A stretch of DNA of 64,000 nt from an uncultured Prevotellaceae bacterium (GTDB taxonomy: Bacteria > Bacteroidota > Bacteroidia > Bacteroidales > Bacteroidaceae). The translations under genes were made by a program, and so were the position numbers. How positions within the stretch are numbered: the first letter of the stretch is position 1; the number at the start of each line of letters is the position of its first letter. Shown one piece after another: positions 12,240 through 49,655 of the stretch. The DNA is taken from NCBI GenBank assembly GCA_902776475.1, contig CACYQD010000014.1:68146-132145 (forward strand), written 5' to 3'. The notes under the pieces are model-generated. The model had not been told where the DNA came from and ran no database searches. It saw nothing but the letters and a program-made list of their open reading frames with translations.

Positions 12240-12329
12240 GCAAAATTACGGAAAATCGAGTGGAGAATAAAAAGAATTCATTCATTTTTTTCCCGAGATG
12301 GAGTAATTTTAGCAAAATTACGGAAAATC
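12240..12329 (-). repeat. Promoter-carrying dispersed repeat upstream of dnaX (two TAATTTTG boxes)
   Basis: gcaaaattacggaaaatc at 12240 and 12312 flanking GAGTGGAGAATAAAAAGAATTCATTC...CCCGAG; related to 42750-42850 and 49490-49655. Confidence 0.7.
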
Positions 12330-12353
12330 ATTTTTTATTTCACTTGGTTTTCG

Positions 12354-12361
12354 TATCTTTG
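12354..12361 (+). promoter_or_regulatory. -7 box TATCTTTG for the LysM-PorT genes
   Basis: Exact match 20 nt upstream of ATG 12382. Confidence 0.65.
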
Positions 12362-12381
12362 CCACAAATATTGATGAGGAA

Positions 12382-13884
12382 ATGAAACAGATCAAATACA
12401 TCATGACCGCCCTGCTCATCGTGATGACGATGACCGCAGCCGCACAAGGTACCAATGTCCGCACCAGGCATAAGGTGGAGAAAAGCGAGACGGTGTTTGG
12501 AATAGCCAAAAAATATGGCATCACCATCGAGGAACTCATAAATGCCAACCCCGATATGAAGAAGCAGGGGTATGAACTCAAGTATGGTGACACCATCAAC
12601 ATCCCCTACGCCAAGGACCAGTCGCAGCAAGCCAATACCAATACCAATGCGCCCAAGGCCAATACCAATGCGCCCAGCACCAATGCCAATGCGCCCAAGA
12701 CCAATGCCAATACGCCCAGCACCAGTGCCAATGCACCCAAGGCCAATACCAATACGCCCAAGACCAATACAGACGCGCCCAAGACCAGTGTGGTGAACAC
12801 TGCCAAGCCTGTCACCACCGTGGTGGGGAAAAAGGAGGTCAAGGTGGGCGTGATGCTCCCCCTGCACGACAATGACGGCGACGGACGCCGCATGGTGGAA
12901 TATTACCGTGGACTCCTCCTCGGTGTCGATCGGGTGAAGAAGGACGGCGTCACCGTCGATATGCACGCCTGGAACGTGCCCATCGATGCGGATATCAACA
13001 AGACCCTGAGTGAGAAAGAGGCTGCTGAATGCGACATCATCTTCGGCCCGCTCTATACCAATATGGTGAAACCGCTGGCAGACTTCTGTGCCAAGCACGA
13101 CATCATGATGGTCATACCGTTCTCCATCTCGGGCAATGATGTGGAGAACTACTCCAATATCTTCCAGGTCTATCAGGCACAGCCCGAATTTGACAAGCAG
13201 ACCATCAAGAACTTCATCCAGTGGTTTAACAACTATCATGTTGTGATCATCGACTGTGAGGACGAGAAGAGTGGGAAGGCCGAATTCACCAAAAACCTGA
13301 GGGCCGAACTCGACAATTACGCCCTCAAATACTCTCTCACCAGCCTTAAGACCAATGAGAAGAGCTTCGCCAAGGCCTTCAGTCTCTCGCAGCAGAATGT
13401 GGTGATACTCAATACCGAGCACTCGCCGTCGCTCAACAGCACCTTGGCCAAACTCAACACGCTGACCCAGAACAACAATGATATCAGCGTGTCGCTCTTC
13501 GGCTACAAGGAGTGGTTGATGTATACCAAGGTGTATCTCGACTACTATTTCAAATACGACACCTATATCCCTACCTATTTCTATTATAATGACCTCTCCG
13601 CCGACACCAAATGGGTGGAGCGCAACTACAAGAAATGGTTTGAGAAGGATATGAACGCCGATGCCCTGCCGAGATTCGCTCTCACAGGATTCGACCACGC
13701 TTGTTTCTTCATCGGAGGATTCAGCCAATTCGGAGCGGGATTCAACGGAGGAAAGGGCCAGATGACCTACAAGCCGGTACAGTCGCCCCTGAAGTTCAAG
13801 TCGGCAGGAAAAGGGCACAAGAACACCAACTTCATGTTCGTGCATTACAAGAACGACCGCACCATCGAGTCGGTGAATTATTGA
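12382..13884 (+). CDS. LysM peptidoglycan-binding protein with C-terminal periplasmic-binding-protein-like domain
   Basis: Signal peptide; HKVEKSETVFGIAKKYGITIEELINANP...LKYGDTINIP; KVGVMLP...EYYRGLLLG; IIFGPLY. Confidence 0.85.
   Translation: MKQIKYIMTALLIVMTMTAAAQGTNVRTRHKVEKSETVFGIAKKYGITIEELINANPDMKKQGYELKYGDTINIPYAKDQSQQANTNTNAPKANTNAPSTNANAPKTNANTPSTSANAPKANTNTPKTNTDAPKTSVVNTAKPVTTVVGKKEVKVGVMLPLHDNDGDGRRMVEYYRGLLLGVDRVKKDGVTVDMHAWNVPIDADINKTLSEKEAAECDIIFGPLYTNMVKPLADFCAKHDIMMVIPFSISGNDVENYSNIFQVYQAQPEFDKQTIKNFIQWFNNYHVVIIDCEDEKSGKAEFTKNLRAELDNYALKYSLTSLKTNEKSFAKAFSLSQQNVVILNTEHSPSLNSTLAKLNTLTQNNNDISVSLFGYKEWLMYTKVYLDYYFKYDTYIPTYFYYNDLSADTKWVERNYKKWFEKDMNADALPRFALTGFDHACFFIGGFSQFGAGFNGGKGQMTYKPVQSPLKFKSAGKGHKNTNFMFVHYKNDRTIESVNY
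12640..12786 (+). repeat. Coding tandem repeat, 7 x 21 bp (NTNAPKA-like linker)
   Basis: aataccaatgcgcccaaggcc-type units in frame in the LysM gene. Confidence 0.9.
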
Positions 13885-13888
13885 TAGG

Positions 13889-14656
13889 ATGAGAAAGGTA
13901 ACCGTGAAGCATACCTGGGGATTGTGGGTCGCGATCGCATCCATGTGGCTGTTGCCCGTGAGGACGGCAGCGCAGATCGGAGAGCATCGCGATGACCTCT
14001 CCGTGGGTGCCAATGCGGGCTACCAGCTCTCTTCTGTGGGCTTCAACCCGAGAGTGCCGCAGGGACAGCACGGCGGACTCACCGGTGGTCTGTCGGTGAG
14101 GTATGTCTGCGAGAAATATTACAGCACGATCTGTTCGGTCTATGCGGAACTCAATGTGACCCAGATGGGATGGAAGGAGGACATCCTCGATGCACACGAC
14201 CAGATGGTGATCAATCCCGCCACCTCGAAAGCCGAGGAATACAGCCGCACGATCAACTACGTGCAAGTGCCGATCTTCGCCCATCTCGCATGGGGCAGGG
14301 AGACGAAAGGATTCAACTTCTTCTTCCAGGCCGGACCGCAGTTTGGCTTCTGCTTCGGTGAATCGACCTCCTGCAATTTTGATGTCAACCAGCCCAACAT
14401 GACCGACCGCTCCAACAAGACCATCAAGCAGTATTCGATGGATGTGGAGAAGAAATTCGACTATGGCATCGCCGGCGGACTGGGACTGGAATACACCATT
14501 CCCCAACTGGGGCATTTCCTGCTTGAAGGGCGCTATTACTACGGACTGGGAAATATCTACGGAGCGTCGAAACGTGACTATTTCGGCGTGTCCAACTTCA
14601 AGGGGATATCCGTCAAACTCACTTATCTCTTCGACCTGAAGAGGACAGAGAAATAG
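13889..14656 (+). CDS. PorT-family outer-membrane beta-barrel protein
   Basis: Signal peptide; YVQVPIFAHL, GPQFGF, FDYGIAGGLG, LEGRYYYGLGNI; C-terminal TYLF. Confidence 0.8.
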   Translation: MRKVTVKHTWGLWVAIASMWLLPVRTAAQIGEHRDDLSVGANAGYQLSSVGFNPRVPQGQHGGLTGGLSVRYVCEKYYSTICSVYAELNVTQMGWKEDILDAHDQMVINPATSKAEEYSRTINYVQVPIFAHLAWGRETKGFNFFFQAGPQFGFCFGESTSCNFDVNQPNMTDRSNKTIKQYSMDVEKKFDYGIAGGLGLEYTIPQLGHFLLEGRYYYGLGNIYGASKRDYFGVSNFKGISVKLTYLFDLKRTEK

Positions 14657-14710
14657 GCCGGCGACGGCAAGGACAACAATTGGAAACAGTTAAACTTAAA
14701 ACGATAAACT

Positions 14711-16264
14711 ATGTTCAAAAATCATCCTAAAGGATTGCTGCTTGCTGCATTAAGCAATATGGGAGAGCGGTTCGGATACTATATCATGAACGCCGTGCTC
14801 GCGCTCTTCCTGTGTTCGAAATTCGGCCTCTCCGATGGCCAGAGTGGTTTCATCGCCGCCATGTTCCTCACCGCCATCTATGTGCTCAGCCTCGTGGGTG
14901 GCATCATCGCCGACCGTACCCAGAACTACAAAGGCACGATCGCATGGGGCCTCGTGGTGATGGCATTGGGTTATATCCTCCTGGCTATTCCCATCCTGGC
15001 CACACCCGGCAACATCTCCTGGCTCCTGCCATTCACCATCTTCGCTCTTGCACTCATCGCTTGTGGAAACGGTCTGTTCAAAGGCAACCTGCAGGCCATC
15101 GTCGGTCAGATGTATGACAACTTCGAAGCCAGTGCCGCCAAACAGGGACCTGAGAAACTGAAGTGGGCTCAGGGACAGCGTGATGCCGGTTTCCAGATTT
15201 TCTACGTCTTCATCAATATCGGTGCCTTGGCAGCACCGTTCATCGCTCCATTGTTGCGGAGCTGGTGGCTGAAGGTGCATGGACTGGCTTATAATGCCGA
15301 CCTTCCCAAACTTTGCCATGAGTACATCGCTGGCAATATGGACACCAATAACATGCAGAACTTGACGGAATTGGTCCAGAAAGTGGGGGGCGACACCTCT
15401 GATTTGGCTGGCTTCTGCACGCACTATCTCGATATCTTCAATACGGGTATCCACTACTCGTTCATCGCTTCCGTGGTCACCATGTTGATCTCATTGGCCA
15501 TCTTCTTGCTGTCGAAGCATCTCTTCCCGACTCCGGGAAAGAAAGAGGCTGTTTCATCGGAGGGATACACCGAGGACGAGAAAAGGGCCATGGCCAAGGA
15601 AATCAAGCAGCGTATGTATGCGCTCTTCGCCGTGCTGGGCATCGCCGTCTTCTTCTGGTTCTCATTCCACCAGAACGGACAGTCGCTGTCGTTCTTCGCC
15701 CGCGACTTCGTGCAGACTGATTCCATCGCACCAGAGATTTGGCAGGCTGTCAACCCGTTCTTCGTCATTGTCCTCACTCCGGTCATCATGTGGTTCTTCG
15801 CCACGCTCACAGCTCGTGGAAAGGCCATCTCCACACCGCGTAAGATCGCATACGGTATGGGTATCGCCGGATTGGCTTACCTCTTCCTCGCTCTCTACTC
15901 GGCTTCACAGAGCTATCCTTCGGCTGAGACATTCACAGCCCTGTCCGACTCGGCAAAGGCTGGTCTGAAAGCCGGTCCTTGGGTGCTCATCGTCACCTAT
16001 TTCTTCCTGACTGTGGCCGAATTGTTCATCTCACCGCTGGGACTTTCGTTCGTGTCGAAGGTGGCACCCAAGAACTTGCAGGGTCTCTGCCAGGGATTGT
16101 GGCTGGGAGCTACAGCCGTGGGCAACGGCCTGCTGTGGATTGGTCCGCTGATGTATAACAAGTGGCCGATCTGGGTGTGCTGGGTCGTGTTCCTCATCAT
16201 CTGCCTCATCTCCATGGGTGTGATGTTCGGCATGGTGAAGTGGTTGGAAAGAGTAACCAAGTAA
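14711..16264 (+). CDS. Proton-dependent oligopeptide transporter (POT/PTR family MFS)
   Basis: NMGERFGYY (ExxERFxYY-like), GNGLFKGN, FYVFINIGAL, ELFISPLGLS motifs. Confidence 0.92.
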   Translation: MFKNHPKGLLLAALSNMGERFGYYIMNAVLALFLCSKFGLSDGQSGFIAAMFLTAIYVLSLVGGIIADRTQNYKGTIAWGLVVMALGYILLAIPILATPGNISWLLPFTIFALALIACGNGLFKGNLQAIVGQMYDNFEASAAKQGPEKLKWAQGQRDAGFQIFYVFINIGALAAPFIAPLLRSWWLKVHGLAYNADLPKLCHEYIAGNMDTNNMQNLTELVQKVGGDTSDLAGFCTHYLDIFNTGIHYSFIASVVTMLISLAIFLLSKHLFPTPGKKEAVSSEGYTEDEKRAMAKEIKQRMYALFAVLGIAVFFWFSFHQNGQSLSFFARDFVQTDSIAPEIWQAVNPFFVIVLTPVIMWFFATLTARGKAISTPRKIAYGMGIAGLAYLFLALYSASQSYPSAETFTALSDSAKAGLKAGPWVLIVTYFFLTVAELFISPLGLSFVSKVAPKNLQGLCQGLWLGATAVGNGLLWIGPLMYNKWPIWVCWVVFLIICLISMGVMFGMVKWLERVTK

Positions 16265-16287
16265 AAAGTTCGGAGATTCAAAACCAA

Positions 16288-16386
16288 CCTCTCCCTTTGG
16301 GAGATCCAAAAGCAACCATCCCCTCTCCCTTTGGGAGAGGACGGGTGAGGGAAAAAAATAGAGACGTCACATTGTGGCGTCTCTAC
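16288..16386. repeat. Composite REP element: two CCTCTCCCTTTGGGAGA hairpins + GGnnnGGTGAGGG + GTAG-REP
   Basis: Read directly between the convergent POT and queC genes; same architecture at 62174-62444. Confidence 0.85.
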
Positions 16387-16409
16387 TGCGTTTCAGTGTA
16401 TTTCTGTTT

Positions 16410-17063
16410 TTATGAAATATAATCCGTGGGGTCTTCTATTCCGGCCTCTCGAAGTGCTTCCTTGCGCTCTAGACAGGTGCCGCAGCGGCCGCAGTGGCGC
16501 TCTCCTCCCTTGTAGCAGGAGTAGGTCTCGGCATAGTTGATGCCCAGACGTTTCCCGATCTTGGCGATGTCGGTCTTCGTGATGCCCGTGTAGGGTGCCA
16601 GGACCTCCACTCCGATGTAGGTGCCGGCACGCATGGCTTCCGACATGGGTTTGACAAACTCCGCCGTACAGTCGGGGTAGATGGAATGGTCACCGAAATG
16701 GTTGGCCATCATCACCTTGGTCAGGCCGCGGCTCTCTGCTATGCCGCAGGCTATGGAGAGCATGATGCCGTTGCGGAAAGGCACAACGGTCGATTTCATG
16801 TTGTCATCGGCATAGTCACCTTCAGGGATGGCATCAGCCCCCTCCAACAGCGATGACTTGAAATACTGGCTCATGAAGGAAAGGGGTATCACGAGATGTT
16901 CGATGCCCAACCGTTGGCAGTGAAGGGCGGCGAAGTGAGCTTCCCGCTTGTTGTGGTTGCTGCCGTAGTCAAAGGTGACGGCAAGGGCGATCCTGTCTTT
17001 ATGGTCATGCAACAGGGTGACGGAATCCATTCCGCCTGATAGGATGATGACAGCGTCTTTCAT
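16410..17063 (-). CDS. queC: 7-cyano-7-deazaguanine synthase
   Basis: LSGGMDS, FDYGSNH, VPFRNGIML, YPDC, TYSCY, HCGRCGTCLER. Confidence 0.96.
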   Translation of the reverse strand: MKDAVIILSGGMDSVTLLHDHKDRIALAVTFDYGSNHNKREAHFAALHCQRLGIEHLVIPLSFMSQYFKSSLLEGADAIPEGDYADDNMKSTVVPFRNGIMLSIACGIAESRGLTKVMMANHFGDHSIYPDCTAEFVKPMSEAMRAGTYIGVEVLAPYTGITKTDIAKIGKRLGINYAETYSCYKGGERHCGRCGTCLERKEALREAGIEDPTDYIS

Positions 17064-18457
17064 TGTTTTGTTTTTGTGGATTTGATATTGGCCTCATGCA
17101 GACCATAGCCTTTCTTGCGGTCGATGACCATCAGCAGCAGGGCGAAGAGGATGGCTCCAGCGCCGAGAGCGGTGAAGACCAGCATCGGGATGGTGTAATC
17201 GACATGGCCGTCGGAAGAGGTGTATTCACCGATGATGTTGCCTACGAACATCGGCACCAGCATCAGGCCGATGTTCTGAACGAAATAGATGATGCTGTAG
17301 GCCGTGCCCAACTGTTTGAGCGGTACGATCTTGGGTACACTGGGCCACATCGCGCTGGGTACCAGGGAGAACGAGACTCCGTAGAGGATCATCGTCAGTG
17401 AGGCAAACCAGGTGTGGTTGAGGATCGGGAGGGCCAGGAAAAGATGGCAGAGGGTGACCAGCACACAACCGATGAGCATCAGCGTCGAACCGCGCCCCAT
17501 ACGGTCGTAAATGATTCCGAAAAGGGGTGTGAGGACAATGGTGCCGTAGGGCAGGATGGAGGTGATCCAGCCGGCTGTCACAGGAGCAATGCCATATTTG
17601 TTGATGAGCAGGTCTGTGGCAAACTTCAGGAAGGGGCGCAGACTGGAGTAGAACATCACGCACAGGATGGCGATGAGCCAAAAACCAGGGTTGCGGAGCA
17701 CCTTGACGAAATCGCGGAACGAGAACTCCTCGTTCTCCGTGGCTGAAGAGGCCGTGTCCTTCACGGCCATCTTGTCGAAGCGCTTGTCCATGAAGATATA
17801 GACGATGAACATCACAAAACCCATCAGCAAAAGGGCTGCACCTACAAGAATCGGGGCCGACAGTCCGTAAGCGTTGGCGATGACCGGACTCATGCTGATG
17901 GCCGATGCGGTGCCCAGACGGGCCATGGCCACCTGAATGCCCATGGCAGAGGCCAGTTCGTGGCCTGTAAACCACTTGGTGACAACCTTGGACACGGTGA
18001 TGCCTGTGATGTCGCATCCCACGCCAAACAAGCCAAAACCGAGGGATGCCACCAGCACCTGTGTCTTGATGTGACTGGGGATGAGACCGAAGAGGGTGAA
18101 GGGAAGGTCAACGTAGGAGAAGGGCCAGATGACGGTCACTGCCAGGTAGTTGATCGCCGCTCCGCTGAGCATCATGCCGGTGGCAAGGATGCCTGTGAAG
18201 CGGATGCCGCATTTGTCGAGGATGATGCCGCCCCAGAAGAGCATCAACAGGAAGATGTTGAAGATGCTGTAGCTGCCGGCATAGAAGCCATATTCAGCGG
18301 CGGTCCATCCCATGCCACCGGATTTTACCGAGGCCTTGAGGGTGGTGGAAAGTGGCGAAACGATGTCCCAGAACACATACCCCATCATCATGACAAAGGC
18401 CACGATGAAGAGCACGGTCCAGCGGCGTGTGCGTGAGTTGTTGGAGACGGTTTGCAT
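17060..18457 (-). CDS. MFS transporter, MFSD1-like paralogue 2 (start probably MQTVSN at 18457)
   Basis: About 12 hydrophobic helices; GYVFWD, GGIILDKCGIR, FGVGCD..KWFTGHEL..MARLG, MWPSV, VQNIG; stop overlaps the queC start (ATGA). Confidence 0.88.
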   Translation of the reverse strand: MQTVSNNSRTRRWTVLFIVAFVMMMGYVFWDIVSPLSTTLKASVKSGGMGWTAAEYGFYAGSYSIFNIFLLMLFWGGIILDKCGIRFTGILATGMMLSGAAINYLAVTVIWPFSYVDLPFTLFGLIPSHIKTQVLVASLGFGLFGVGCDITGITVSKVVTKWFTGHELASAMGIQVAMARLGTASAISMSPVIANAYGLSAPILVGAALLLMGFVMFIVYIFMDKRFDKMAVKDTASSATENEEFSFRDFVKVLRNPGFWLIAILCVMFYSSLRPFLKFATDLLINKYGIAPVTAGWITSILPYGTIVLTPLFGIIYDRMGRGSTLMLIGCVLVTLCHLFLALPILNHTWFASLTMILYGVSFSLVPSAMWPSVPKIVPLKQLGTAYSIIYFVQNIGLMLVPMFVGNIIGEYTSSDGHVDYTIPMLVFTALGAGAILFALLLMVIDRKKGYGLHEANIKSTKTKQ

Positions 18458-18467
18458 CAATAAAAAT

Positions 18468-18501
18468 TGGGTGCGTCCCTCCATAGGCGGTGACGCACCC
18501 A
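18468..18501. repeat. Intercistronic hairpin tgggtgcgtc...gacgcaccca
   Basis: 10-bp perfect inverted repeat between the two MFS genes. Confidence 0.6.
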
Positions 18502-18517
18502 TTGTATTTGAGGTGGG

Positions 18518-20173: not shown

Positions 20174-20215
20174 TGTATTTTTTGATTGATGTTTTTTTTG
20201 AGGGTGGGGCTGGGG

Positions 20216-20382
20216 CTAGTGGCTCTAGGGTTTCTAGTGGTCCTAGGGTTTCTAGTGGTCCTAGGGTTTCTAGTGGCTCTAGGGTTTCTAGTGGTGCTAG
20301 GGTTTCTAGTGGTCCTAGGGTTTCTAGTGATCCTAGGGTTTCTAGTGATTCTAGGGTTTCTAGTGCCTCTAGTGATCCTAGG
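20216..20382. repeat. CTAG-phased tandem repeat (18-bp unit of two 9-mers, about 9 units, 19 CTAG)
   Basis: ctagtggtc-ctagggttt repeated between the S9 peptidase stop and the MFS start. Confidence 0.95.
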
Positions 20383-20385
20383 TTG

Positions 20386-39543: not shown

Positions 39544-39581
39544 AATAACTACATTCATTAATAACTACATTCATTAATAAC
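39544..39581. repeat. 16-bp tandem repeat (2.4 copies)
   Basis: aataactacattcatt x2 + aataac. Confidence 0.8.
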
Positions 39582-39676
39582 CAATCCTGAAATAACAATC
39601 TTTTACCTTAATATTCCTAATACCTGCATCGCATAATCAGATTGTAGTATGTATGTATTCGAGTGATTCGTGGATA

Positions 39677-40891: not shown

Positions 40892-41008
40892 CGTCGTATG
40901 GTTTTAATATGGTTTTACATTTTTCTCATTCTCACGATGCAAAGGAACAAAGAATTTCTTACCCCCGAAAAGGATTTTCCCTACTTTGGGAGGGGAAAAT
41001 CCCTAAAT

Positions 41009-41032
41009 CAAAAACCCCCTCGTCTGAGGGGG
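41009..41032 (-). terminator. Intrinsic terminator of the nucleoside kinase gene
   Basis: ccccctc-gtct-gaggggg with an A tract on its left. Confidence 0.65.
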
Positions 41033-41045
41033 CAAATCGGGAGGG

Positions 41046-42728
41046 TTATCTGTATTTAAAACTCGAACCGCCGACGAATTCACGCATGATGCTGGTGGGA
41101 GGTATCTCTTTGTCGCTGACGGGGATGAAGTAATGGATGAATTTCAGCAGCCGGTGCGCTTCGGAATATTCCGGGCAGTTCTTCGGCACGGAGGCCAGGA
41201 TGATCTCCGCATGGGTGCGGAGCACGGCAAACTCGATGTTGAGCGCAGAGTTGAACATCACGTCGGCAGTCTCCTGGAAGGGCAGGATCCACTGTTCCTC
41301 GGCCTCGCAGACGTTGGGCCACATGCGGATGGTTTCCACGGCGGTATAGGCACCTTTGTTGTAGTCGCGGATGATGCGCCGGAGCAATCGGTTGTCGTGG
41401 GTGGGAATCCAGTTGTGGTCATCCAGTGAGATGCTGGTGAGCGCCGAGATGAAGATCTTGAATTTTGCCGTGTCGGGAATCTTCTCCGTCAGCAGGGGGT
41501 TGAGGGCGTGGATACCTTCTATGATCAGCACGCAGTCGTTTTGCAGTTTCAGTTTCTTGCCGTTGAATTCGCGCTTCCCGGTGACGAAATTATATTCGGG
41601 CACCTCCACGCGCTCCCCGCGCATCAGCCGTTGCAGATGGTCTTCGAGCAGGGCGCAGTCCACGGCCTTGATGTTGTCGAAGTCATACTGTCCGTTGGGC
41701 AGCAGCGGGGTGTCGACCCGGTTGACGAAATAGTCATCGGTGGAAAAGGAGATGGGATGCAGGCCACAGGCGAGCAACTGCACCGACAGGCGCTTGCAGA
41801 ATGTCGTCTTGCCCGAGCTCGACGGACCGGTGATGAGCACGAGGCGGATGGGGTCTTTCTCCGCACGGAAACGGGAGTCGATCTCCTCGGCGATCTTCAC
41901 GATTTTCTTCTCCTGAAGGGCCTCGCTCACTTGGATGAGTTCGGAGGCATGACCCTTTAATATGGCTTTGTTCACGTCGCCGGCGTTCGACAGGCGCATG
42001 ATGACGTCCCAGTGCACCTTCTCAGCAAACATCTCGTAGGTTTTGGGCTGATCGAACTTCTTGGCGAGTTCAAGCGGGTTTTTCTTGTCGGGCACCCGCA
42101 GCAACAGTCCATCGCCGTATGGTTCCAGACCCCAGACCTTCAGATAACCGGCCGAGGGCACCAGCGGACCATAATAATAATCCACGGTGTCGCCCAACAT
42201 ATAATAGTCGGTGTAGATTTGTCCACTCGTTTCGGTCAGTTTCACTTTGTCGGAGAATCCGCGGTCGGAGAAAATCCGCACGGCCTCCTCTGTCGTCGCC
42301 TCAAAGCGGCGGAAGGGCATGTCGAGGTTGATGATCTGCTGCATACGCTCCTTGATGCGCTCCACATCCTCCACCGAGAACGACTCATTTCCTCGGCGCT
42401 TGAGGTTGCAGTAATAACCGCGCGACAGGGGATGCTCGATAAATAACTTGCTGCCGGGGAAGATGTCGCAGACAGCTTTGTAGAGCACGAAGCAGAGAGA
42501 ACGGACATAGACGCGGTGGCCGGAACCCTCCCTGGCGTCCAGAAATTCCACGTCGCGGTTCTGGAAAAGGCGGAATTTCAGTCCCTGCGAGGCGTTGTTC
42601 ACTTTGGCCGATACCACAGGGTAGGGGAGTTGGATCTCATCGGCAAATTCCTGATACACATCCAGAAGGGAGCACCCCTCAGGAAAACTTTTAGTCACGT
42701 TGTTGTTTTTGCATCGAATCTGGAGCAT
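41046..42728 (-). CDS. Nucleoside (uridine) kinase family protein fused to ThrRS-like N-terminal TGS/second domains
   Basis: SAKVNN (TGS), RVYVRSL; GPSSSGKTT P-loop, DDYF, LIIEGIHALNP, RLLRRIIRD. Confidence 0.88.
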   Translation of the reverse strand: MLQIRCKNNNVTKSFPEGCSLLDVYQEFADEIQLPYPVVSAKVNNASQGLKFRLFQNRDVEFLDAREGSGHRVYVRSLCFVLYKAVCDIFPGSKLFIEHPLSRGYYCNLKRRGNESFSVEDVERIKERMQQIINLDMPFRRFEATTEEAVRIFSDRGFSDKVKLTETSGQIYTDYYMLGDTVDYYYGPLVPSAGYLKVWGLEPYGDGLLLRVPDKKNPLELAKKFDQPKTYEMFAEKVHWDVIMRLSNAGDVNKAILKGHASELIQVSEALQEKKIVKIAEEIDSRFRAEKDPIRLVLITGPSSSGKTTFCKRLSVQLLACGLHPISFSTDDYFVNRVDTPLLPNGQYDFDNIKAVDCALLEDHLQRLMRGERVEVPEYNFVTGKREFNGKKLKLQNDCVLIIEGIHALNPLLTEKIPDTAKFKIFISALTSISLDDHNWIPTHDNRLLRRIIRDYNKGAYTAVETIRMWPNVCEAEEQWILPFQETADVMFNSALNIEFAVLRTHAEIILASVPKNCPEYSEAHRLLKFIHYFIPVSDKEIPPTSIMREFVGGSSFKYR

Positions 42729-42749
42729 AAGCTTTACAATATGGTTTCG

Positions 42750-42850
42750 ACAAATTTATGAAAAAACGGGAGGAGAACAAAAAGAATTCGTTCTTTTCTT
42801 ATCCCGAGTGCTCAAGTAAGTTCGCCACGCAGTGGCAAATTTACGAAAAA
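42750..42850 (-). repeat. Promoter-carrying dispersed repeat upstream of the nucleoside kinase (two TAAATTTG boxes)
   Basis: caaattta at 42751 and 42836 flanking GGGAGGAGAACAAAAAGAATTCGTTC...CCCGAG and TTCGCCACGCAGTGGCAAA. Confidence 0.7.
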
Positions 42851-42974
42851 AAGTTGTAACGGCTAACGGATTTGGGAGAATTCATTCAATTCACTTGTTG
42901 TTTTGAGAATTATCCATTATTTTTGCTCATTGAAATACCAATTCATGTTGATCACAAAAGAGAATGTCGAAAGC

Positions 42975-43673
42975 ATGAAACACTTGTTTGAAGCGTGCAC
43001 CGCCAATATGGCGAGTGTGAGAGAAGCCGTCTTGGGCGGTGCGGAACGCATTGAATTGTGCACGGCACTGCCGCTTGGAGGACTCACGCCATCGATAGGT
43101 ATGGTCAAGGCCGTCAGGGAGATGGCTCCCCACCTCACCATCCATCTCCTCATCCGTCCACGAGAGGGCGATTTTGTCTATCGGGAGGATGAGGTAGCCG
43201 TGATGGAGCGCGACATGGAGGAAGCCCAACCTTTTGTCGATGGGTTCGTCTGCGGTGCGCTGTTGCCCGATGGCGGCATCGATACTGCCACCATGCGCCG
43301 TCTGATCAAGAAGGCTGGGGAGAAACCCGTCACCTTCCATCGTGCGTTCGACGTTTGCCGTGACCCTATAGAGGGACTTCAACAAGTGATAGATTTAGGA
43401 TGCAGGCGGCTGTTGAGTTCAGGACAACAGCCCACAGCCGTGGAGGGCATTCCACTATTACGGCAACTTCACTCGCTTGCCGCGGGACGCATCATTGTCA
43501 TGCCCGGAAGTGGTGTGAATGAAAAGAATGTGCGTCAGATTATCCAACAGACGGGTGTCTCCGAAATCCACGGGTCGGCTTCCTCTTCCACAGGCATCAC
43601 GAGCCGGGAGACGGTAAGGAGTATTATTCAAAAATTGAATATTGAGTTCGGGCAAAGCCCGATTGAAGATTGA
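42975..43673 (+). CDS. cutC: CutC family protein (alternative start at 42945)
   Basis: EAC, GAERIELC, GGLTPS, LIRPREGDF, TFHRAFD, LSSGQ, MPGSGV; TATTTTTG box at 42918-42925; last residues are encoded by the downstream repeat. Confidence 0.92.
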   Translation: MKHLFEACTANMASVREAVLGGAERIELCTALPLGGLTPSIGMVKAVREMAPHLTIHLLIRPREGDFVYREDEVAVMERDMEEAQPFVDGFVCGALLPDGGIDTATMRRLIKKAGEKPVTFHRAFDVCRDPIEGLQQVIDLGCRRLLSSGQQPTAVEGIPLLRQLHSLAAGRIIVMPGSGVNEKNVRQIIQQTGVSEIHGSASSSTGITSRETVRSIIQKLNIEFGQSPIED

Positions 43674-43930
43674 GTTCGGCCTTTGGCCGATTGAAAATTG
43701 AGTTCGGGCAGCCCGATTGAAGATTGAGTTGGCCTTTGGCCGATTGAATATTGAAAATTATATCGGCTTCGCCGATTGAATATAACCCCGCTCCTTATAT
43801 ACGAAGCATCGGGATTATTCCGATGAGCGAGTACTCAATTTTCAATCTTGAATAATCAATCGGGCTTTGCCCGAGTTCATTTTTCAATCTTTAATCTTTA
43901 ATTTTCAATTTTCAATTTTGAATTTTCAAT
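43633..43930. repeat. Hairpin array / MITE-like element with inverted arms between cutC and the transglutaminase gene
   Basis: Five TTGAGTTCGG-loop-CCGATTGAA-like units, about 50 bp of unique core, an inverted unit tcaatcgggctttgcccgagttca, then ttttcaa heptamers. Confidence 0.85.
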
Positions 43931-46432
43931 CTTAATAATTGTTTTGAGCAGTTGTTCTCCCAGATTGATGGTGTATCCCTGTTGTACGTGGAGGACGCGG
44001 TTGAAAGAATCGTAGATGATGAAAACAGGCAGCGCCGGTGAATGCAGTTTCATCTGCTCACGGATTTCAGTCAGACATTTTCCGTCCTCGTCGATGCCCC
44101 ATTCCACAGTGGAAGGCAGGGGAGGCAATTCGGTGAAATTGAAACGTTGCGCCTCGTCCTCGTTTTCGAAGAGCAGCATGATTTTCCGTCCCCATTTCTC
44201 CCATTCTTCCTTGCAGGCACAGAGGTCTCTCAAGGCATGATTGGTCGGTTCGTGATTGGGAGCGAGGATGCCCAGCACGTTGTATCCTCGTCCTGTGGCG
44301 CTCAACAATGTTTTTGACTCCGAAGTTTCTGTCAGTGGGCGGTATTTGTTTTCTGCATTGAAACTCCCGATCACCTGCACGTCTTGTTTGTCTTCACGCA
44401 TGGTGAACGTCGCCTCATGGTACGCCTCATTGTGGGGTATGGTGATCCGTTGCATGGTGGCGAGCACTTTTCCACTTGCCATGCGGGTTCCGGTGGTCAA
44501 CAGGTAGTCGTCGCAGTCTCCAGAACGGGCCACCTTCACCCCCTCACTGAAACTGTTGCGCCAGGTGGCATCCTCGGGATAGGTGAGCAGACGGGGCCGT
44601 CCTCCCTCCAGTTTGCTTAAGGTGAAATGGATATAATATTTGGGATCGTCGTAGTATTCCACGGGCAGGTATTTGAGCAACAACGTCGCTGTAGACAGCG
44701 TCTCCGACTGGTGCTGTGTCTGGAAATCCACATCGTGCCAGACGCCCTCCTCAACATATTGCAAGGCGCCATTCACCTCATTGATGCGCGACGGCCACCC
44801 CAAACTGCGAGCCACACTCACGAAAAAGATTTTGCGCCCCATTTCGTCGGTCACTCTGCTCTGATAAACACTCATGGGTCTCATCCGCAACAACTGCGGA
44901 TTGTGAACACTGTCGATGCGTATGCTTTCCGTGCACCAGCGGACAAGGTCGCGGGGATTTTTCAGCAAACCCTGAAACTGTTGTCTAAAAAATGCCTTGT
45001 AGGGTGTGAGCCATTCGTTTTCCACACGGGGATTGAGCAAATATTTCCCGTAGAGTTGCGTCGTGTCAACTTCTGTTGTCTCATTGTCTTTCAGCACCTC
45101 CAACGTGATGTCGCGCAAATCCTTGGGAGAGAGGACTTCCTGCAGACGGCGGGCCATCAAAGGATTCTTTGCTTCGTTGAGAAACCGCTGGATTACCTCG
45201 TGGTTACCTCTCCATGCCTCCTGGGGCATTGTCAGTTCATACTGGTGTCTGATGCTGTCCTCGCTGGCCAGTCGCCGGTTGTTCTCTGCTCGTTGTTCGG
45301 GGGTGACCAGAGGCAATTTGGCGCTGACGGGAGGCGGTACGATGTCAAGTTCGATATATCGTGGAATTGGTTGACCGTTCAAAACGACAGTCACCTGCTG
45401 CTGTTTTCCGAAACTCACCTTTTGGATGGCCGTCATCCCATCCTTTGTCACCCACAGCAGCATATCGCCCTTTCCGGCGGTCAGACAAGTGTGGCCGGTC
45501 GCATCGGTGGTTTTCTGAGCCACCGTATAGAATTCAGCATAGTTGTAGAGCTTGAACTCCACCAAAGCCCCTGCTACGGCATCGCCTTTGGCATCCACCA
45601 CGGCCACATCCATCTGTGAGACAGGCGCATAGTGGTCCACCACATTGATTTCAGTATAACAGGGCGTCCGGCTCATCACCTCCTCAGGACCGTCGTAGTC
45701 GCCAAACACCTTGGTGTGCATCAGTATGCCCTGTGAGGCACTCTCGTTGAACCATCCCAAGTTGAGCACCGGCTCCGGTTCGCAGGCACCCAGAAAAAAC
45801 CACTGTCCATCAGCCCAGGCCTCCACCCAGGCGTGATTGTCGTCCGTGTGAGCCCATCGGGGAGTATAGACCTGGCGGGCGGGAATACATACCGACCGGA
45901 GGGCAGCCACCAACAGGGTGCTCTCCTCTCCGCATCTGCCGTAAGCGGTCCTGACTGTGGCCAGCGGACTGCTTGTCCGGGCATCGCTCGGACGATAGGT
46001 GGCCTTCTCGTGACACCAATGGTTGACCTCGAGAACCGCATCCTGCATGGACAGACCTGTCACCCGTTGGCGCAGTTCCCCGTAAAACACCATGCGGCTG
46101 TCGTCCAGATTCTCATTGTTTACCCTGACAGGTAAGATGAAATGCCTGAACTCCCTTTCGGGAACTTTTGCTCCCCATGGCATCTCCCGTCGGGCCTTCA
46201 TGGCTGCTTCCACATTGCGCCGGTAAAACCCCTCGCTGTAATCGTAGCGGTCGGGCAGGGGCATGCTTCGATACAGGAAGTCCATGTAGCCATCCACATC
46301 CATACTGTCGCAGACCACGGGTGTCTCAGCAAGAGCCTTTCCATGGATGGACAGCGCATGGACAAACGCAAAAGCCATGACGACAAATGCGCTTGTCCAA
46401 ATTCTATGATGGGATGGACGGTGTGTGTTCAT
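43898..46432 (-). CDS. Secreted transglutaminase-like (PNGase-like) domain protein
   Basis: Hydrophobic N-terminus; AYGRCGEES (Cys), NHAWVEAW (His), FLGACE; second degenerate domain VARSLGWPSR. Confidence 0.85.
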   Translation of the reverse strand: MNTHRPSHHRIWTSAFVVMAFAFVHALSIHGKALAETPVVCDSMDVDGYMDFLYRSMPLPDRYDYSEGFYRRNVEAAMKARREMPWGAKVPEREFRHFILPVRVNNENLDDSRMVFYGELRQRVTGLSMQDAVLEVNHWCHEKATYRPSDARTSSPLATVRTAYGRCGEESTLLVAALRSVCIPARQVYTPRWAHTDDNHAWVEAWADGQWFFLGACEPEPVLNLGWFNESASQGILMHTKVFGDYDGPEEVMSRTPCYTEINVVDHYAPVSQMDVAVVDAKGDAVAGALVEFKLYNYAEFYTVAQKTTDATGHTCLTAGKGDMLLWVTKDGMTAIQKVSFGKQQQVTVVLNGQPIPRYIELDIVPPPVSAKLPLVTPEQRAENNRRLASEDSIRHQYELTMPQEAWRGNHEVIQRFLNEAKNPLMARRLQEVLSPKDLRDITLEVLKDNETTEVDTTQLYGKYLLNPRVENEWLTPYKAFFRQQFQGLLKNPRDLVRWCTESIRIDSVHNPQLLRMRPMSVYQSRVTDEMGRKIFFVSVARSLGWPSRINEVNGALQYVEEGVWHDVDFQTQHQSETLSTATLLLKYLPVEYYDDPKYYIHFTLSKLEGGRPRLLTYPEDATWRNSFSEGVKVARSGDCDDYLLTTGTRMASGKVLATMQRITIPHNEAYHEATFTMREDKQDVQVIGSFNAENKYRPLTETSESKTLLSATGRGYNVLGILAPNHEPTNHALRDLCACKEEWEKWGRKIMLLFENEDEAQRFNFTELPPLPSTVEWGIDEDGKCLTEIREQMKLHSPALPVFIIYDSFNRVLHVQQGYTINLGEQLLKTIIKIENSKLKIEN

Positions 46433-46520
46433 GGTTTCTCATTTTGGACAGGTCGGAAAAGAACCACCCGCGGTAGACTTCAAATTACTTTTAATTACTC
46501 CAAGTTCGTCAGAGAGGACG

Positions 46521-46958
46521 TTACAATTTCCGGAATTGCAGGATGACATTTCCGTCAGAGAGCGTCATCCGTTCCGAGGAAAGGTTTTCTATCCGAAATC
46601 GTGGCGACCACGACCCCAGGCCGTAGAACTGCAGGCGGATGAGTTCCTCCACTTCAGGATCACCCTTGTCGCGCTCATTATAATATGGTCTCTCCAGTAT
46701 CAGGGAATCTCCCTGCCGCTCATACCGCGAAATCAGGGAAGAATACTGGTAGTCGCGGTCAGTCATCTGGATCAGATGTCCCTGTATGGCCCAGAAAACC
46801 TTTTTCTGTCCATAGTCTGCAGAGGCGGCATGGAGTGTGTCGATGCGCTCCAAATGCCAGTAACCATCCAGTTTCCCTCCATGTGAGGACTCCATCTCGC
46901 ACGACATCAGCATGGCAACCATGATGACAAGGAGAGGGATGTAAAACAGTCTTTTCAT
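46521..46958 (-). CDS. Lipocalin-like lipoprotein
   Basis: Start MKRLFYIPLL, lipobox LMSC; GKLDGYWHL..ID motif. Confidence 0.78.
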   Translation of the reverse strand: MKRLFYIPLLVIMVAMLMSCEMESSHGGKLDGYWHLERIDTLHAASADYGQKKVFWAIQGHLIQMTDRDYQYSSLISRYERQGDSLILERPYYNERDKGDPEVEELIRLQFYGLGSWSPRFRIENLSSERMTLSDGNVILQFRKL

Positions 46959-46988
46959 CTTGTCTGATCGTTTTTTCACGGAAACCAT

Positions 46989-48326
46989 TTACCTCACGTT
47001 CTCCCGATAAACCGCCGGGCGGTCATCCGCCTTGCGGGAATAGATTTTCACATTGTCGAACGTGACGTTTTTGGCATTCTTCACGAAGAATCCTTTCGAG
47101 GGAAGCGTGCCGAACATCGTGCCTTCCGGGTAGGCATTGATTTTCTCGTCGGTGGGAGCCTTCACTTGTCCCATGCCGCCACTATGTGTGATGGAGATGT
47201 TGCGGAGTTTCACATTTTCCACAATCTGACCGGGTACGCCGGTGATCGAACAGCCCGTGTTGCCGGCATTCGTCACTGTCACGTTGCTGATGCTCACGCC
47301 GTTGATGCTGCTCCGCTTCGGTTTCGTGAGTTTCTGTCCGAAGGTGTTGCCGCAGTTTCCCAACCTCACGAAGATAGGCACTTCAGTGCCATCGACGGTG
47401 ATGTCGTCAAACGTGACGTTTTCCAACTTCGCACCGTCAACACTCTCCACGGCGATGGCGGAGATGCCGTTGCGCCTGCCATTGATCACCTTCTTCTGTT
47501 TGCTTTGTTTCACTGTGCAGTGCGTGAAACTGACGTCGCTGATGTCGCCGAGAGTCTCAGTGCCGATTTTCATGGCGTTGCAGTGGCTGCTGATGACACA
47601 GTTGGTCACACGGATGTTTCTCGACGGACTCAACGTGACATTTTTCAGGCAGATGCCGTCGTCGTCGGAGTCCACGGTCACTCCCTTGACGGTCACGTTG
47701 CTGCAACCGTTGATGTCCATGCCGTCGTTGCAGTTGTTGCAGTGGTTGTAGATATTGACATCCTCGATGACCATGTCTTCGCATAGATGATAGAGTTGCA
47801 TCCACACGCCGGAGTTGCGCAACTTCACCCCGCTGATCCTGACCCCTTTGCAGGTGTCGAAACGGATGAGCATGGGCCGGGTGATGCCCAGGGCATTGCA
47901 TGCTTGGTCGGAGAACACCTTGCCTTGTCCGTCGATGGTGCCGCTGCCGCTGATGCCGATGTTCTTGGCATGGGCGGCGAAGATCAGCTGCGAAGTGATA
48001 TAGACATCGGGCCTCGCCTTACTGAGCACATAGTCGGCGGGTTTTTTGCTGCCCAGGAGCGTCGCCCCTTCTTCCAGATGCAGGGTGACACCGCTTTTCA
48101 GGACGAGAGCTCCCGTCAGGAATTTCCCGGAGGGGATGATCACCCGTCCGCCACCGCTTTTGTGGCAGTCATCGATGGCTTGCTGTATCGCCTTGGTACA
48201 GGTCTTTTTCGTCCCTTTCTTGGCACCATATTCAGTGATGGTGACATCCTTGGCTTGCAGTCCCATACCTGCCGTCACCATCATGGCCAGTATGACAAGC
48301 CTGAAAAATAGGTTTCTCCTCATCAT
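46989..48326 (-). CDS. Glycoside hydrolase family 28 (polygalacturonase-like)
   Basis: Signal peptide; TKAIQQAIDDC..GGGRV.IP.G.FLTG, N.DGMDI, DDGICLK, AMKIGTE; beta-helix repeats. Confidence 0.9.
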   Translation of the reverse strand: MMRRNLFFRLVILAMMVTAGMGLQAKDVTITEYGAKKGTKKTCTKAIQQAIDDCHKSGGGRVIIPSGKFLTGALVLKSGVTLHLEEGATLLGSKKPADYVLSKARPDVYITSQLIFAAHAKNIGISGSGTIDGQGKVFSDQACNALGITRPMLIRFDTCKGVRISGVKLRNSGVWMQLYHLCEDMVIEDVNIYNHCNNCNDGMDINGCSNVTVKGVTVDSDDDGICLKNVTLSPSRNIRVTNCVISSHCNAMKIGTETLGDISDVSFTHCTVKQSKQKKVINGRRNGISAIAVESVDGAKLENVTFDDITVDGTEVPIFVRLGNCGNTFGQKLTKPKRSSINGVSISNVTVTNAGNTGCSITGVPGQIVENVKLRNISITHSGGMGQVKAPTDEKINAYPEGTMFGTLPSKGFFVKNAKNVTFDNVKIYSRKADDRPAVYRENVR

Positions 48327-48342
48327 GGTCTCATATTCATTG

Positions 48343-49482
48343 TCAAGTGTGAGAACCCTTGGTCCTCACGAGTTCCTCATAGATTTCGAGATGCTTGCTG
48401 AGCACCTGTTCGATGTCAAATTCCTTTTCGGCCTTCTCGCGGCTGCGGCGCCCCATGCGGAGGCGGAGTTCCTTGTCGTTGATCAGTGTGCGGAGACGGT
48501 CGGCCAATGCGGCGCTGTCGCGCACGGGCACCAGAAAACCGTTTTCTCCTTCCTCCACGGTGTCCTTGCATCCATACCACTGGGTGGTGACGATGGGCCG
48601 TCCGATGGCCGCAGCCTCAATCAGCGAAAGGGGCAGTCCCTCGCGGTAGTAGCTGGGAAAGGCCATGATATGCGACTGCTGAAGCAGTTGCTTGATGTCG
48701 GAGCGGTATCCCAACCACTGGATGTAGTCGCCGTCGCAGAGGCTCTCCAGTTCCTCCCGGCTGATGGCCTTGGGATTGTTGGACAACATGCCGCAGAGCC
48801 AGAAATGCACGCGCCCTTGCATCTCCTTGCGGAGGAGTTCGGCCGCCTCCACGAGAACCAGGATGCCTTTTTCCTTCACCATGCGGGCGGTGAAGATGAT
48901 GTTCACCTCCTGGCCGTCGGGTTCCGGGGTGAAGGCGAAGTCTTTCAGATTGACTCCAGACCCCTTGATATAGACACAGTCTTGTTCTTGGATGATGTTG
49001 TGCCTCACAAAGAGGGCTTTGTCCTCATGGTTTTGGAAGATCGCGCGGATATTGTCACGGTGGTTGGCATATTTCATCAGGGCCATCACTCCGCGGGTCT
49101 TCAGTCCGGGTTTCTTGTTGGAGAACAGCACGCCGAGACCGCTTACGGCATTCACCACACCGTGGCACTTTGCCAGTTTTGCGGCCAATCCGCCCCAAAG
49201 GATGGTCTTCAGTCCCACATGATGCACGATGTCGGGGCGTTCTTTCTTGTAGAGCTTATAGAGGAATCGAAGCGTGCGGAATTCCTCCCGGATATTCATG
49301 CCCGTAGGGTTGATGGGCAGGTCAATCATCCGCAGGCCAAGGGCTTCCACTGCTGCGCGATCACCCGTGTCCTTGCATACAATGGTCACGTCGTGACCCG
49401 CTTGACGGGCCCGAAGTGCAATCTCCTTCCTATGTGAGAGAAAGAAGCGGTCTTCATTGATGATAATCAGCAATTTCGCCAT
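48343..49482 (-). CDS. Glycosyltransferase family 4
   Basis: FFLSHR, DIVHHVGLK, FTARMVKEKG, FPSYYREGLPLSLIEAAAIGRP (EX7E). Confidence 0.93.
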   Translation of the reverse strand: MAKLLIIINEDRFFLSHRKEIALRARQAGHDVTIVCKDTGDRAAVEALGLRMIDLPINPTGMNIREEFRTLRFLYKLYKKERPDIVHHVGLKTILWGGLAAKLAKCHGVVNAVSGLGVLFSNKKPGLKTRGVMALMKYANHRDNIRAIFQNHEDKALFVRHNIIQEQDCVYIKGSGVNLKDFAFTPEPDGQEVNIIFTARMVKEKGILVLVEAAELLRKEMQGRVHFWLCGMLSNNPKAISREELESLCDGDYIQWLGYRSDIKQLLQQSHIMAFPSYYREGLPLSLIEAAAIGRPIVTTQWYGCKDTVEEGENGFLVPVRDSAALADRLRTLINDKELRLRMGRRSREKAEKEFDIEQVLSKHLEIYEELVRTKGSHT

Positions 49483-49489
49483 ATAGGGG

Positions 49490-49655
49490 GCAAAGATAGT
49501 GCAAACCGAGCGGAAAGCAAAACAAATCTTGATTTTTTTGCTTTTCCGAGGTGCCGCCTATCTTCGCCGCGGAGCGGCAAAATACGAATAAGTGAGTGGA
49601 ATGCAAAACAAAATACAAAGTTTTTGTTTTCATTCCCGAGCGAGAGTACTATCGG
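49490..49655 (-). repeat. Promoter-carrying dispersed repeat, two tandem units, upstream of GT4
   Basis: gcaaagatag (TATCTTTG on minus, 49491-49498)...GAGCGGAAAGCAAAACAAA...TTTTCCGAG...TTCGCCGCGGAGCGGCAAA, then a second degenerate unit. Confidence 0.7.

Follow-up and report, generated by a model that had tools for sequence, protein, structure and literature searches.

Three short stretches of DNA upstream of unrelated genes in a rumen Prevotella belong to one family of repeated promoter cassettes. All three lie within the window analysed here (the whole stretch of 64,000 nucleotides), and a search profile built from them (the sites before dnaX, a PRK/uridine-kinase-family gene and a family-4 glycosyltransferase gene, GT4) detects about 101 units, spread over about 65 loci of the 3.6-Mb source genome (nhmmer). 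We think it probable, judging from sequence comparisons, that this is a lineage-wide family in which the unit proximal to each gene drives that gene, and in which arrays change mainly by recombination. An earlier sequence-only reading of this DNA had proposed a dispersed repeat carrying an outward-facing promoter for unrelated genes, including dnaX. That proposal is strongly supported, and the three sites do share the one architecture it described, with the AAAAAGAATTCRTTC word common to the dnaX and kinase copies, the TTCGCC...GGCAAA hairpin, and a proximal TAnnTTTG box 8-23 nt from the start codon at every site. Its gene identities were also right by Pfam.

The dnaX gene (10310..12217, minus strand; DNA polymerase III gamma/tau, Pfam DNA_pol3_delta2 2.4e-45 and DNAX_ATPase_lid) is preceded by a complete promoter unit at 12240..12311 on the same strand, which we take to serve it (CM R1 match 12241-12310). 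Reading towards the gene, this unit consists of a left arm that is an inverted copy of the box (12303-12310), a CTCGG (12293-12297), a palindrome, H1 (about 12262-12291), a spacer CTCG (12257-12260) and the -7 box TAATTTTG (12241-12248), with the dnaX ATG at 12217, 23 nt past the G of the box. Immediately behind it on the minus strand lies a distal partial copy (12312..12329), 18 nt identical to 12240-12257 that supply a second TAATTTTG box, and this copy folds with the left arm as a hairpin, H2. Further out, on the plus strand, is the promoter of a divergent LysM-domain gene (12330..12362, box TATCTTTG at 12354-12361). Its family weight-matrix score of 10.3 places it in the top 1% of 505 non-family boxes, and it resembles a family-type unit that has decayed and faces the other way.

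The PRK/uridine-kinase-family gene (41046..42728, minus strand; 560 aa, Pfam PRK 9e-18) would likewise be served by a complete unit on its own strand at 42750..42829 (CM match 42751-42831), with its box TAAATTTG at 42751-42758, CTCGG region at 42803-42808 and left arm at 42816-42828. A distal partial copy follows at 42832..42853 (minus strand, box 42836-42843). The unit is present in three other strains, differing by SNPs only, and in other strains the partial copy repeats 18 nt of the proximal box end exactly and in direct orientation. Upstream of GT4 (48343..49482, minus strand; Pfam Glycos_transf_1 4e-34 and Glyco_trans_4_2) there are two minus-strand units, both apparently serving the gene. 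The proximal unit, B, occupies 49489..49570; its box TATCTTTG (49491-49498) stands 8 nt before the ATG at 49482, and its left arm is at 49558-49570. The distal unit, A (49574..49655; nhmmer E=5e-3 and an alignment of A, A' and B), belongs to a different subfamily and has a box defective by one base (TATTTTG).

The likeness among these three sites far exceeds chance, with E-values in the whole-genome nhmmer search of 1.7e-9, 3.7e-8 and 1.7e-9 for the proximal units of dnaX, the kinase gene and GT4, respectively. Genome-wide, the same search gives 42 single, 12 double, 9 triple and 2 quadruple loci, so that arrays comprise one to four units, arranged head-to-tail. Scored with a weight matrix spanning -50 to -8, family units reach at least 25 (median 43.5), whereas 97% of the 505 other gene-upstream TAnnTTTG boxes fall below 0 and shuffled controls never exceed 0; the promoter-cassette family is discrete from ordinary promoters. 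With the box excluded, the best identity of a unit to one elsewhere in the genome has a median of 80% over 54 nt, and 19 of 87 units have such a match of at least 90%. Assemblies also break at the repeats, with contigs terminating within arrays, and the discovery of promoter motifs can be misled by them.

Each unit, about 55-85 nt in length, is by motif a complete Bacteroidota-type promoter, with a -33 TTTG, a spacer and a -7 box TAnnTTTG. H1 is an A/T-rich palindrome of an A-tract and a T-tract whose right (3') arm supplies the -33 TTTG, and between it and the -7 box runs a conserved spacer of 19-20 nt with an invariant TCG; across subfamilies this TCG, at -18 to -16, is almost invariant while other spacer positions vary. 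Of 87 units, 72 have a -33 TTTG placed 19-21 nt upstream of the box, a spacing seen at 24% of the 505 other boxes. Sequence conservation ends precisely where the generic -7 motif does, at TTTG+CA. In Segatella copri, dRNA-seq has placed a conserved -7 box at more than 70% of primary start sites, and its motif agrees with that of the units (bioRxiv 10.1101/2024.04.05.588293). The idea that the family is the source of the extended -33 motif of S. copri, AAAnnTTTGG, finds no support, there being one weak family match in Segatella sinensis and two in S. cerevisiae. Between subfamilies the sequence of H1 varies with its pairing kept. RNAalifold, applied to 52 units, returned no consensus pairs across the whole family because H1 is out of register between subfamilies, and hairpins were assessed by folding each unit instead of by a family consensus fold.

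A co-oriented gene start is faced by all 44 strong loci and by 65 of 66 overall, against an expected 53% (p about 1e-12). Neither this orientation bias nor the abundance of further genomic copies, both named as checks by the sequence-only reading, refutes it. The box stands a median of 23 nt from the ATG, and since genes were called with a crude in-house program, distances to start codons are approximate. In one case the box ends 9 nt ahead of position 1 of the Rfam match for RNase P RNA, and another unit directly adjoins a cobalamin riboswitch on its upstream side; the 5' boundaries of both RNAs, defined independently, fall where a box-driven start would be expected. The genes served belong to unrelated Pfam families, mostly housekeeping, and include dnaX, efp, lon, metK, metF, dapA, pta, two tRNA synthetases and RNase P RNA. 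Genome-wide, no family copy was found within genes or in 3' intergenic regions. By motif and position the element is a promoter and occurs solely as one, and to call it domesticated, as had been suggested, understates the case. From their motifs, their position and the two RNA boundaries, we infer that family units act as promoters.

Units next to the gene differ from those inside arrays. The box is canonical in 52/52 proximal units and 22/29 internal ones (p=4e-4), and a C directly follows it in 46/52 and 6/29, respectively (p=1e-9). Between units, the box pairs with its own inverted copy to form H2, whose mean energy is -13.4 kcal/mol for internal units compared with -2.6 for proximal ones.

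Comparison of strains reveals changes in whole units. Six other assemblies of the species carry an extra full unit of 73 nt in the dnaX array, the two forms being separated by a clean 73-nt indel of exactly one unit, and the window's single dnaX unit is a chimera of the longer allele's two units. At GT4, strain L179 has a copy of unit A standing in place of unit B between identical flanks. The comparison of empty with filled sites that the sequence-only reading had called for yielded this unit indel and this replacement, both of which lie within existing arrays and fit recombination; no newly seeded locus was caught. Orientation is the same in all 14 strain-level copies compared, which does not fit an invertible promoter (inverton). 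A recombinase would, moreover, have a very short unit to invert.

Across the source's GTDB family the repeat occurs in 23 of 35 sampled genera, which rules out a genus-restricted element, and copy number ranges from none to more than 100 across genomes, with the same span among congeners. In genome G017, 8 of 18 element-bearing genes also bear units in the source genome (p=5e-9), with subfamilies and unit numbers that differ between the two. The best unit matches between species fall at non-orthologous loci (median 81%, up to 94%). Among 47 orthologues of efp (82-98% amino acid identity), only two besides that of the source genome have units, each of a different subfamily, and in the efp array of strain L204 the distal-most box sits at the native promoter position of unit-free relatives. 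Phage records held no family matches, and the one 34-nt match in a Phocaeicola record is a single ordinary unit before an ORF; carriage by phage or plasmid was rejected on these grounds.

These observations can be accommodated by a scheme in which each unit would be a full promoter for the Bacteroidota primary sigma factor. The gene-adjacent unit would supply the gene's promoter, with transcription predicted to start about 5-8 nt past the box, and upstream units would be extra, often weakened copies whose box is paired with its inverted self-copy in a strong H2. Arrays may gain, lose or alter whole units by unequal recombination or slippage, and units may also be swapped through replacement by another unit, while selection would retain only gene-driving copies and hold the proximal box canonical. 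Since the strain differences amount to deletion or duplication of whole units together with replacement, recombination would suffice without transposition, and we infer that it is the main mode of change. Several considerations weigh against this scheme. Recombination between units accounts for change inside an array but leaves unexplained how a unit reaches a promoter with which it shares only an 8-10-nt box. Subfamily sequences persist across species at different loci with up to 94% identity over 54 nt, while the proteins are about 80% identical, a persistence that calls for strong selection acting on entire units or else for an active process of copying. Moreover, bounding inverted arms and arrays of mixed subfamilies are the outcome of discrete-element insertion.

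Another way to view the family is as a true non-autonomous transposon (MITE), the arm-to-box unit being mobilised in trans by an enzyme with the promoter as cargo, and the orientation bias being due either to insertion targeted to -7 boxes already in place or to selection. The 9-13-nt inverted arms that bound units speak for this, as do the mixing of subfamilies within arrays, the precise one-unit replacement between strains, the identical subfamilies at non-orthologous loci in different species, the spread of copy number among congeners and the L204 efp array, which gives the impression that units were placed behind a box already there. An arm complementary to its own unit's box occurs in units that come after another box, and at GT4 the left arm matches its own unit's box and not the preceding one, a comparison that covers GT4 and one or two other cases because too few junctions have differing boxes. 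However, we see no target-site duplication: the direct repeats flanking single units are the unit's own box end, specific to the subfamily, and their lengths of 9 to 23 nt exclude a distal partial copy of fixed length made by a defined cut. The left arm is absent from many copies, including many single units, and the confinement to promoters and the lack of matches in phage records also count against transposition. The comparison of transposase with repeat covered the genome's sole Y1 (RAYT-like) gene, on contig C46 (Pfam Y1_Tnp; NCBIfam REP_Tyr_transpos 62.5 bits, under the 80-bit cut-off). This gene is flanked by a different, G-rich inverted repeat, and a homologue is absent from the high-copy genomes G015 (95 copies), G005 (54) and G016 (28), which led us to reject RAYT/IS200-type mobilisation. 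A transposon is an unlikely account, and the label MITE-like given by the sequence-only reading is not supported in the transposon sense, since no target-site duplication is seen, the Y1 gene is no partner of the repeat and orientation is almost uniform. Unlikely, too, is the idea of a self-propagating promoter cassette homing to resident -7 boxes; because the left arm repeats the box in inverted form, such a unit would dock behind an existing promoter and either add a fresh, standardised promoter or overwrite the resident one. If this were so, the family would be a mobile element for which 'promoter' is both target and cargo, giving copy-number-tunable expression of core genes, among them dnaX, efp, lon and RNase P RNA, in Prevotella-type bacteria.

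Function, rather than copying, might instead maintain the likeness, if CTCGG, the H1 palindrome and CGCTCG were the candidate binding site of a common regulator at housekeeping promoters. The near-invariance of the TCG, the dominance of core functions among downstream genes and the finding that orthologous genes bear units in two species far above chance would fit such a regulon. Yet a sequence-specific dimer site does not permit an H1 that varies in sequence with pairing kept, near-identical tandem units and indels of whole units arise by copying, and the same genes in many congeners have no copy or one; we consider a regulon improbable as the explanation, although it is compatible with repeated cassettes changing by recombination. 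It is more improbable still that the units act at the RNA level, as structured leaders, small RNAs or terminators/insulators whose promoter likeness is secondary. One subfamily's H1, with a GC-containing stem and A-tract/T-tract flanks, resembles a weak terminator acting in both directions, H2 forms a strong hairpin, and transcripts from upstream units would start with an arm that can base-pair with the box that follows. Against this, no T-run follows H2, most H1 stems are A/T only, no covarying consensus structure was found across the family as a whole, and H2-free single units are the commonest form (42/65 loci) and still lie at promoter distance from start codons. A known RNA family was also discarded, Rfam giving no match at gathering score in the window and none at E up to 1 in six arrays.

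If cassettes are counted as promoters, roughly 1 in 9 recognisable promoters in the genome is a copy of one repeat (about 65 loci compared with 505 other boxes). The promoters of some essential genes are among them, and strains differ in whole copies, so that the regulatory layer of rumen Prevotella would evolve partly by the copying and swapping of ready-made promoters and not by point mutation. The family gives the "promoter reuse" idea a large and concrete example that can be tested. Its natural one-, two- and three-unit alleles suit tests of tandem-promoter dosage, and its units are compact native promoter parts for Prevotella genetic tools, which are scarce.

Several known systems share features with the family. 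REP/BIME and REPIN-RAYT elements are, like it, families of short extragenic palindromes that fall into subfamilies, form mosaic arrays and preserve their pairing. The REPs of Proteobacteria, however, are found mainly downstream of genes, alternate in orientation and accompany a RAYT transposase, whereas the units here are directly oriented at 5' ends, and the genome's one RAYT-like gene is flanked by different repeats and shows no covariation with copy number. BrickBuilt, a MITE/minisatellite of Porphyromonas gingivalis (Klein et al. 2015), is likewise an intergenic repeat of the Bacteroidales that contains units in tandem, is bounded by small inverted ends and shows promoter activity, but it has 23-nt units without spacers in 19 copies, lies 49-591 nt from genes and is active bidirectionally (PMC4596501). 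Here, in contrast, each unit (73-85 nt) is a whole predicted promoter, and the last is aimed into the gene at a fixed promoter distance. The Correia elements of Neisseria are cited as transposon-like repeats bearing promoters (PMC3575422). Like the present family, they are short, abundant intergenic repeats with inverted ends and outward promoters for their neighbours. Correia elements have terminal inverted repeats of about 26 bp, a TA target duplication and an IHF site, and insert in either orientation, also near 3' ends. Those repeats, duplication, IHF site and either-way insertion are absent from the Prevotella family, and its promoter is of the Bacteroidota -33/-7 type. Also close are the putative mobile promoters (PMPs; Matus-Garcia, Nijveen and van Passel 2012), which are summarised as upstream sequences at least 80% identical over at least 50 nt before non-paralogous genes of one genome and were proposed to rewire transcription, their way of moving being unknown (PMC3575422). 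Most PMP families are pairs; their sequences come from the region between -150 and -50, and a -10 box is usually absent. The units analysed here show that degree of identity upstream of non-paralogous genes, but they differ in that about 100 of them occupy 65 loci and each has, by motif, a full -33/-7 promoter, in forming head-to-tail arrays with defined hairpins, and in combining whole-unit polymorphism between strains with a spread over 23 of 35 sampled genera.

At each of the three window sites, the parts and their order are as the sequence-only reading had claimed, and the genes served, all on the minus strand, are indeed unrelated: dnaX (12240-12329), a 560-aa protein of the PRK/uridine-kinase family (42750-42853) and a family-4 glycosyltransferase, GT4 (49489-49655). 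Read in the direction of the gene, a unit comprises an arm (in some copies only) that repeats the -7 box in inverted orientation, about 5 bases leading to CTCGG, an A-rich/T-rich palindrome (H1), a pyrimidine-rich run with CTCG at its end, and 8-10 bases leading to the box, TAnnTTTG. The proximal box lies 23, 23 and 8 nt from the start codons of dnaX, the kinase-family gene and GT4, within the 8-23 nt noted earlier. At the dnaX and kinase sites the box end is partly repeated upstream, and this second copy pairs with the arm to form a hairpin, H2, which is the hairpin previously described as optional. The GT4 site consists of two full units of differing subtype.

We iterated an eight-copy profile with nhmmer to convergence over the source genome (3.64 Mb in 55 contigs, 52% GC, with the window on C14 and its DnaX related to those of uncultured rumen Prevotellaceae). 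The repeat proposed from three copies proved to number about 101 units at 65 loci, as 42 single, 12 double, 9 triple and 2 quadruple arrays. Contigs end or start within same-subtype arrays (C39, 20079-20357; C12, 91978 to the end; C32, start to 111), and an identical 60 nt terminates two contigs. These repeats break the assembly and the copy numbers are lower bounds; since contig ends fall inside arrays, the true number of units is probably higher. The suspected orientation bias is near complete: of the strong loci that have a gene downstream, all 44 face the 5' end of a gene in the same orientation, as called by a simple in-house caller, and so do 65 of 66 loci overall (after one gene-calling correction and removal of one palindromic double match). 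By comparison, 5' ends make up only 53% of intergenic flanks. The first in-frame ATG follows the box at a median of 23 nt.

Several features mark the units as predicted promoters that form a set distinct from ordinary ones. Of 87 units, 72 have a -33 TTTG at a spacing of 19-21 nt from the box, versus 24% of other boxes. Conservation of the unit stops exactly at TTTG plus CA, where the genome's generic -7 motif also ends, and the motif agrees with that mapped by dRNA-seq in Segatella copri (bioRxiv 10.1101/2024.04.05.588293). On a weight matrix spanning positions -50 to -8, family units score at least 25 and nearly all of 505 other gene-upstream boxes score below 0; 1-3% of the latter resemble decayed relatives, among them the promoter of the LysM gene divergent from dnaX. 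An RNase P RNA gene (C6:63746-64110, minus strand; Rfam RF00010, 221 bits) directly follows a unit whose box ends 9 nt upstream of position 1 of the match, and a cobalamin riboswitch (C6:137465-137655, plus strand; RF00174, 100 bits) abuts a unit; both 5' ends would fit the start predicted 5-8 nt past the box. Within the window, Rfam gives a single match at gathering score, a tRNA gene (7595-7659, minus strand).

Beside the three window genes, we sampled twenty downstream genes, which lack sequence kinship to each other and in most cases have core functions. Metabolism of one-carbon units, amino acids and acetate is represented by metF, metK, dapA, pta and a 2-hydroxyacid dehydrogenase, and translation and RNA editing by efp, leucyl-tRNA synthetase, a class-I tRNA synthetase of Val/Ile type and a tadA-like deaminase. 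There are two proteases, lon and a U32 peptidase; a DegT aminotransferase and agmatine deiminase; and, as carbohydrate-active enzymes, GH3 and further glycosidases.

Another way to view the units is by their place in an array. The box is canonical in 52 of 52 proximal versus 22 of 29 internal units, and a C directly follows it in 46 of 52 versus 6 of 29, which fits selection acting on the gene-proximal copy. Neighbouring units are either 94-100% alike or from different subfamilies. H1 varies in sequence among at least six subfamilies and is palindromic in each, with a mean folding energy of -5.2 kcal/mol versus -2.3 for shuffled units and -2.5 for ordinary promoters. H2 is strong where another unit follows (mean -13.4) and absent at the gene-adjoining unit (-2.6). 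Structural selection could have retained the H1 and H2 pairing; correction of palindromes by template switching could also be its source.

Strains of this species, taken as assemblies with identical encoded neighbour proteins, were compared at the three window loci. At dnaX, a short allele (one unit plus an 18-nt partial copy) occurs in the window and in two further assemblies, and six carry a long allele with one additional full unit; apart from this clean indel of 73 nt, the two alleles' sequences are identical outside the recombined unit. The unit in the window combines the long allele's two units as a chimera, the product expected from unequal exchange between them. At GT4, units A+B are shared by the window and one strain, and a third strain has A+A', a copy of A standing in place of B, with arm and box as the limits of the replacement and an identical 5' leader. 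Both the whole-unit indel at dnaX and the unit replacement at GT4 fall within arrays already present and would fit recombination, and no newly seeded site was seen at the three loci; the kinase site differs by SNPs only.

Between species, G017, a congener with at least 103 copies, has 18 element-bearing genes with orthologues in the source genome, and units are present there too at 8 of the 18 (p=5e-9), with differing subfamilies and unit numbers. Some of the remaining ten have ordinary or decayed promoters and some lie inside operons. The best cross-species unit matches, with a median of 81% and a maximum of 94% over 54 nt, are at non-orthologous loci. Among 29 congeners, the region ahead of dnaX has units in G047 (four), G065 and G034 and weakly so in G002, and the rest are without them; upstream of efp, only two of 47 metagenomic orthologues have units, in each case of another subfamily than the three identical units of the source genome.

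A sequence-only covariance model of 52 units, R1, matched 17 of 18 sampled congeners (0 to at least 103 matches per genome) and, weakly, one of 12 further families in the order. At E 1e-6 or better, 110 of 150 congeners have at least one match and 40 none, per-genome counts from about 30 upwards being lower bounds. Across the GTDB family, 68 of 150 genomes have matches, as do 23 of 35 genera, the sampled relatives not being independent; several further genera have high counts, again at-least values. All nine inspected loci of other genera show the same architecture, followed 6-50 nt on by an ATG-led ORF. Named human-associated genomes have few or no R1 matches (Segatella sinensis 1, S. cerevisiae 2, Phocaeicola plebeius 4 weak, Prevotella vespertina 0); one perfect unit, 22 nt upstream of an ATG, occurs in a record of Phocaeicola massiliensis.

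Each unit is thus a separate and complete predicted promoter module; change within populations is by whole units, and copies persist solely where they would drive a gene. The array changes seen here would be most simply explained by unequal recombination or slippage between units, with further change through conversion or replacement and selection afterwards retaining the proximal box. This does not explain how a unit arrives at a new promoter, nor subfamily likeness of up to 94% across species at different loci, both of which a transposon-like or box-homing process could supply. We nevertheless consider such spreading unlikely: target duplication is absent, the left arm is often lacking, no misplaced copies were seen in the source genome, and its sole RAYT-like gene is unrelated to the family. 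Of the "promoter-bearing MITE-like cassette" first proposed, the promoter-carrying dispersed repeat is strongly supported and a MITE nature is not supported. In addition to recombination and selection, a common regulator binding CTCG/H1 is possible, but identical tandem units and whole-unit indels are beyond its reach.

The genome and its relatives carry other repeats as well. The gene L101:1090-1944 (minus strand; locus C46:9214-11315) encodes a 284-aa IS200-type Y1_Tnp, REP-associated tyrosine transposase-like but below the NCBIfam cut-off, with a G-rich word (GGGGACGGGGAATCTGAT-like) present in inverted copies on both sides; this looks like a separate REP/RAYT-type system. Arrays of AACTCC/ACTCCYA-type words with GGAGTT complements close by form long imperfect palindromes at the GT4 locus of the window (49716-49800), where strains differ by a 10-nt indel and several substitutions, and in many other intergenic regions (e.g. 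C17 downstream of 45945; upstream of dnaX in L133 and L129). A terminator-like hairpin that recurs in the genome, CCTCTCCC-N3/4-GGGAGAGG with TTAGGTGAGGG often after it, lies just upstream of several units (C2 ~114,950-115,080; C20 ~56,780 and ~73,480; C35 ~13,190; C1 ~149,080) and probably marks the preceding gene's end. In congener loci L124, L125, L134 and L123, unrelated short tandem or palindromic repeats (e.g. aattcttaattctta, ggtgaatggtgaattgtga) sit between the promoter of dnaX and the divergent promoter of a gene for a small membrane protein; across the genus, this dnaX upstream region is a hotspot for repeats.

Our full-text literature search returned no description of this family; separately from that search, a large MITE catalogue has been published for Bacteroidota (PMC11602168). 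Correia elements, BrickBuilt (PMC4596501) and REP/BIME each have some traits in common with the units, but their defining features are not matched. Closest in concept is the "putative mobile promoter" described by Matus-Garcia, Nijveen and van Passel (PMC3575422): the family falls within its operational definition and exceeds it in copy number, in carrying a full promoter, in forming arrays and in documented polymorphism.
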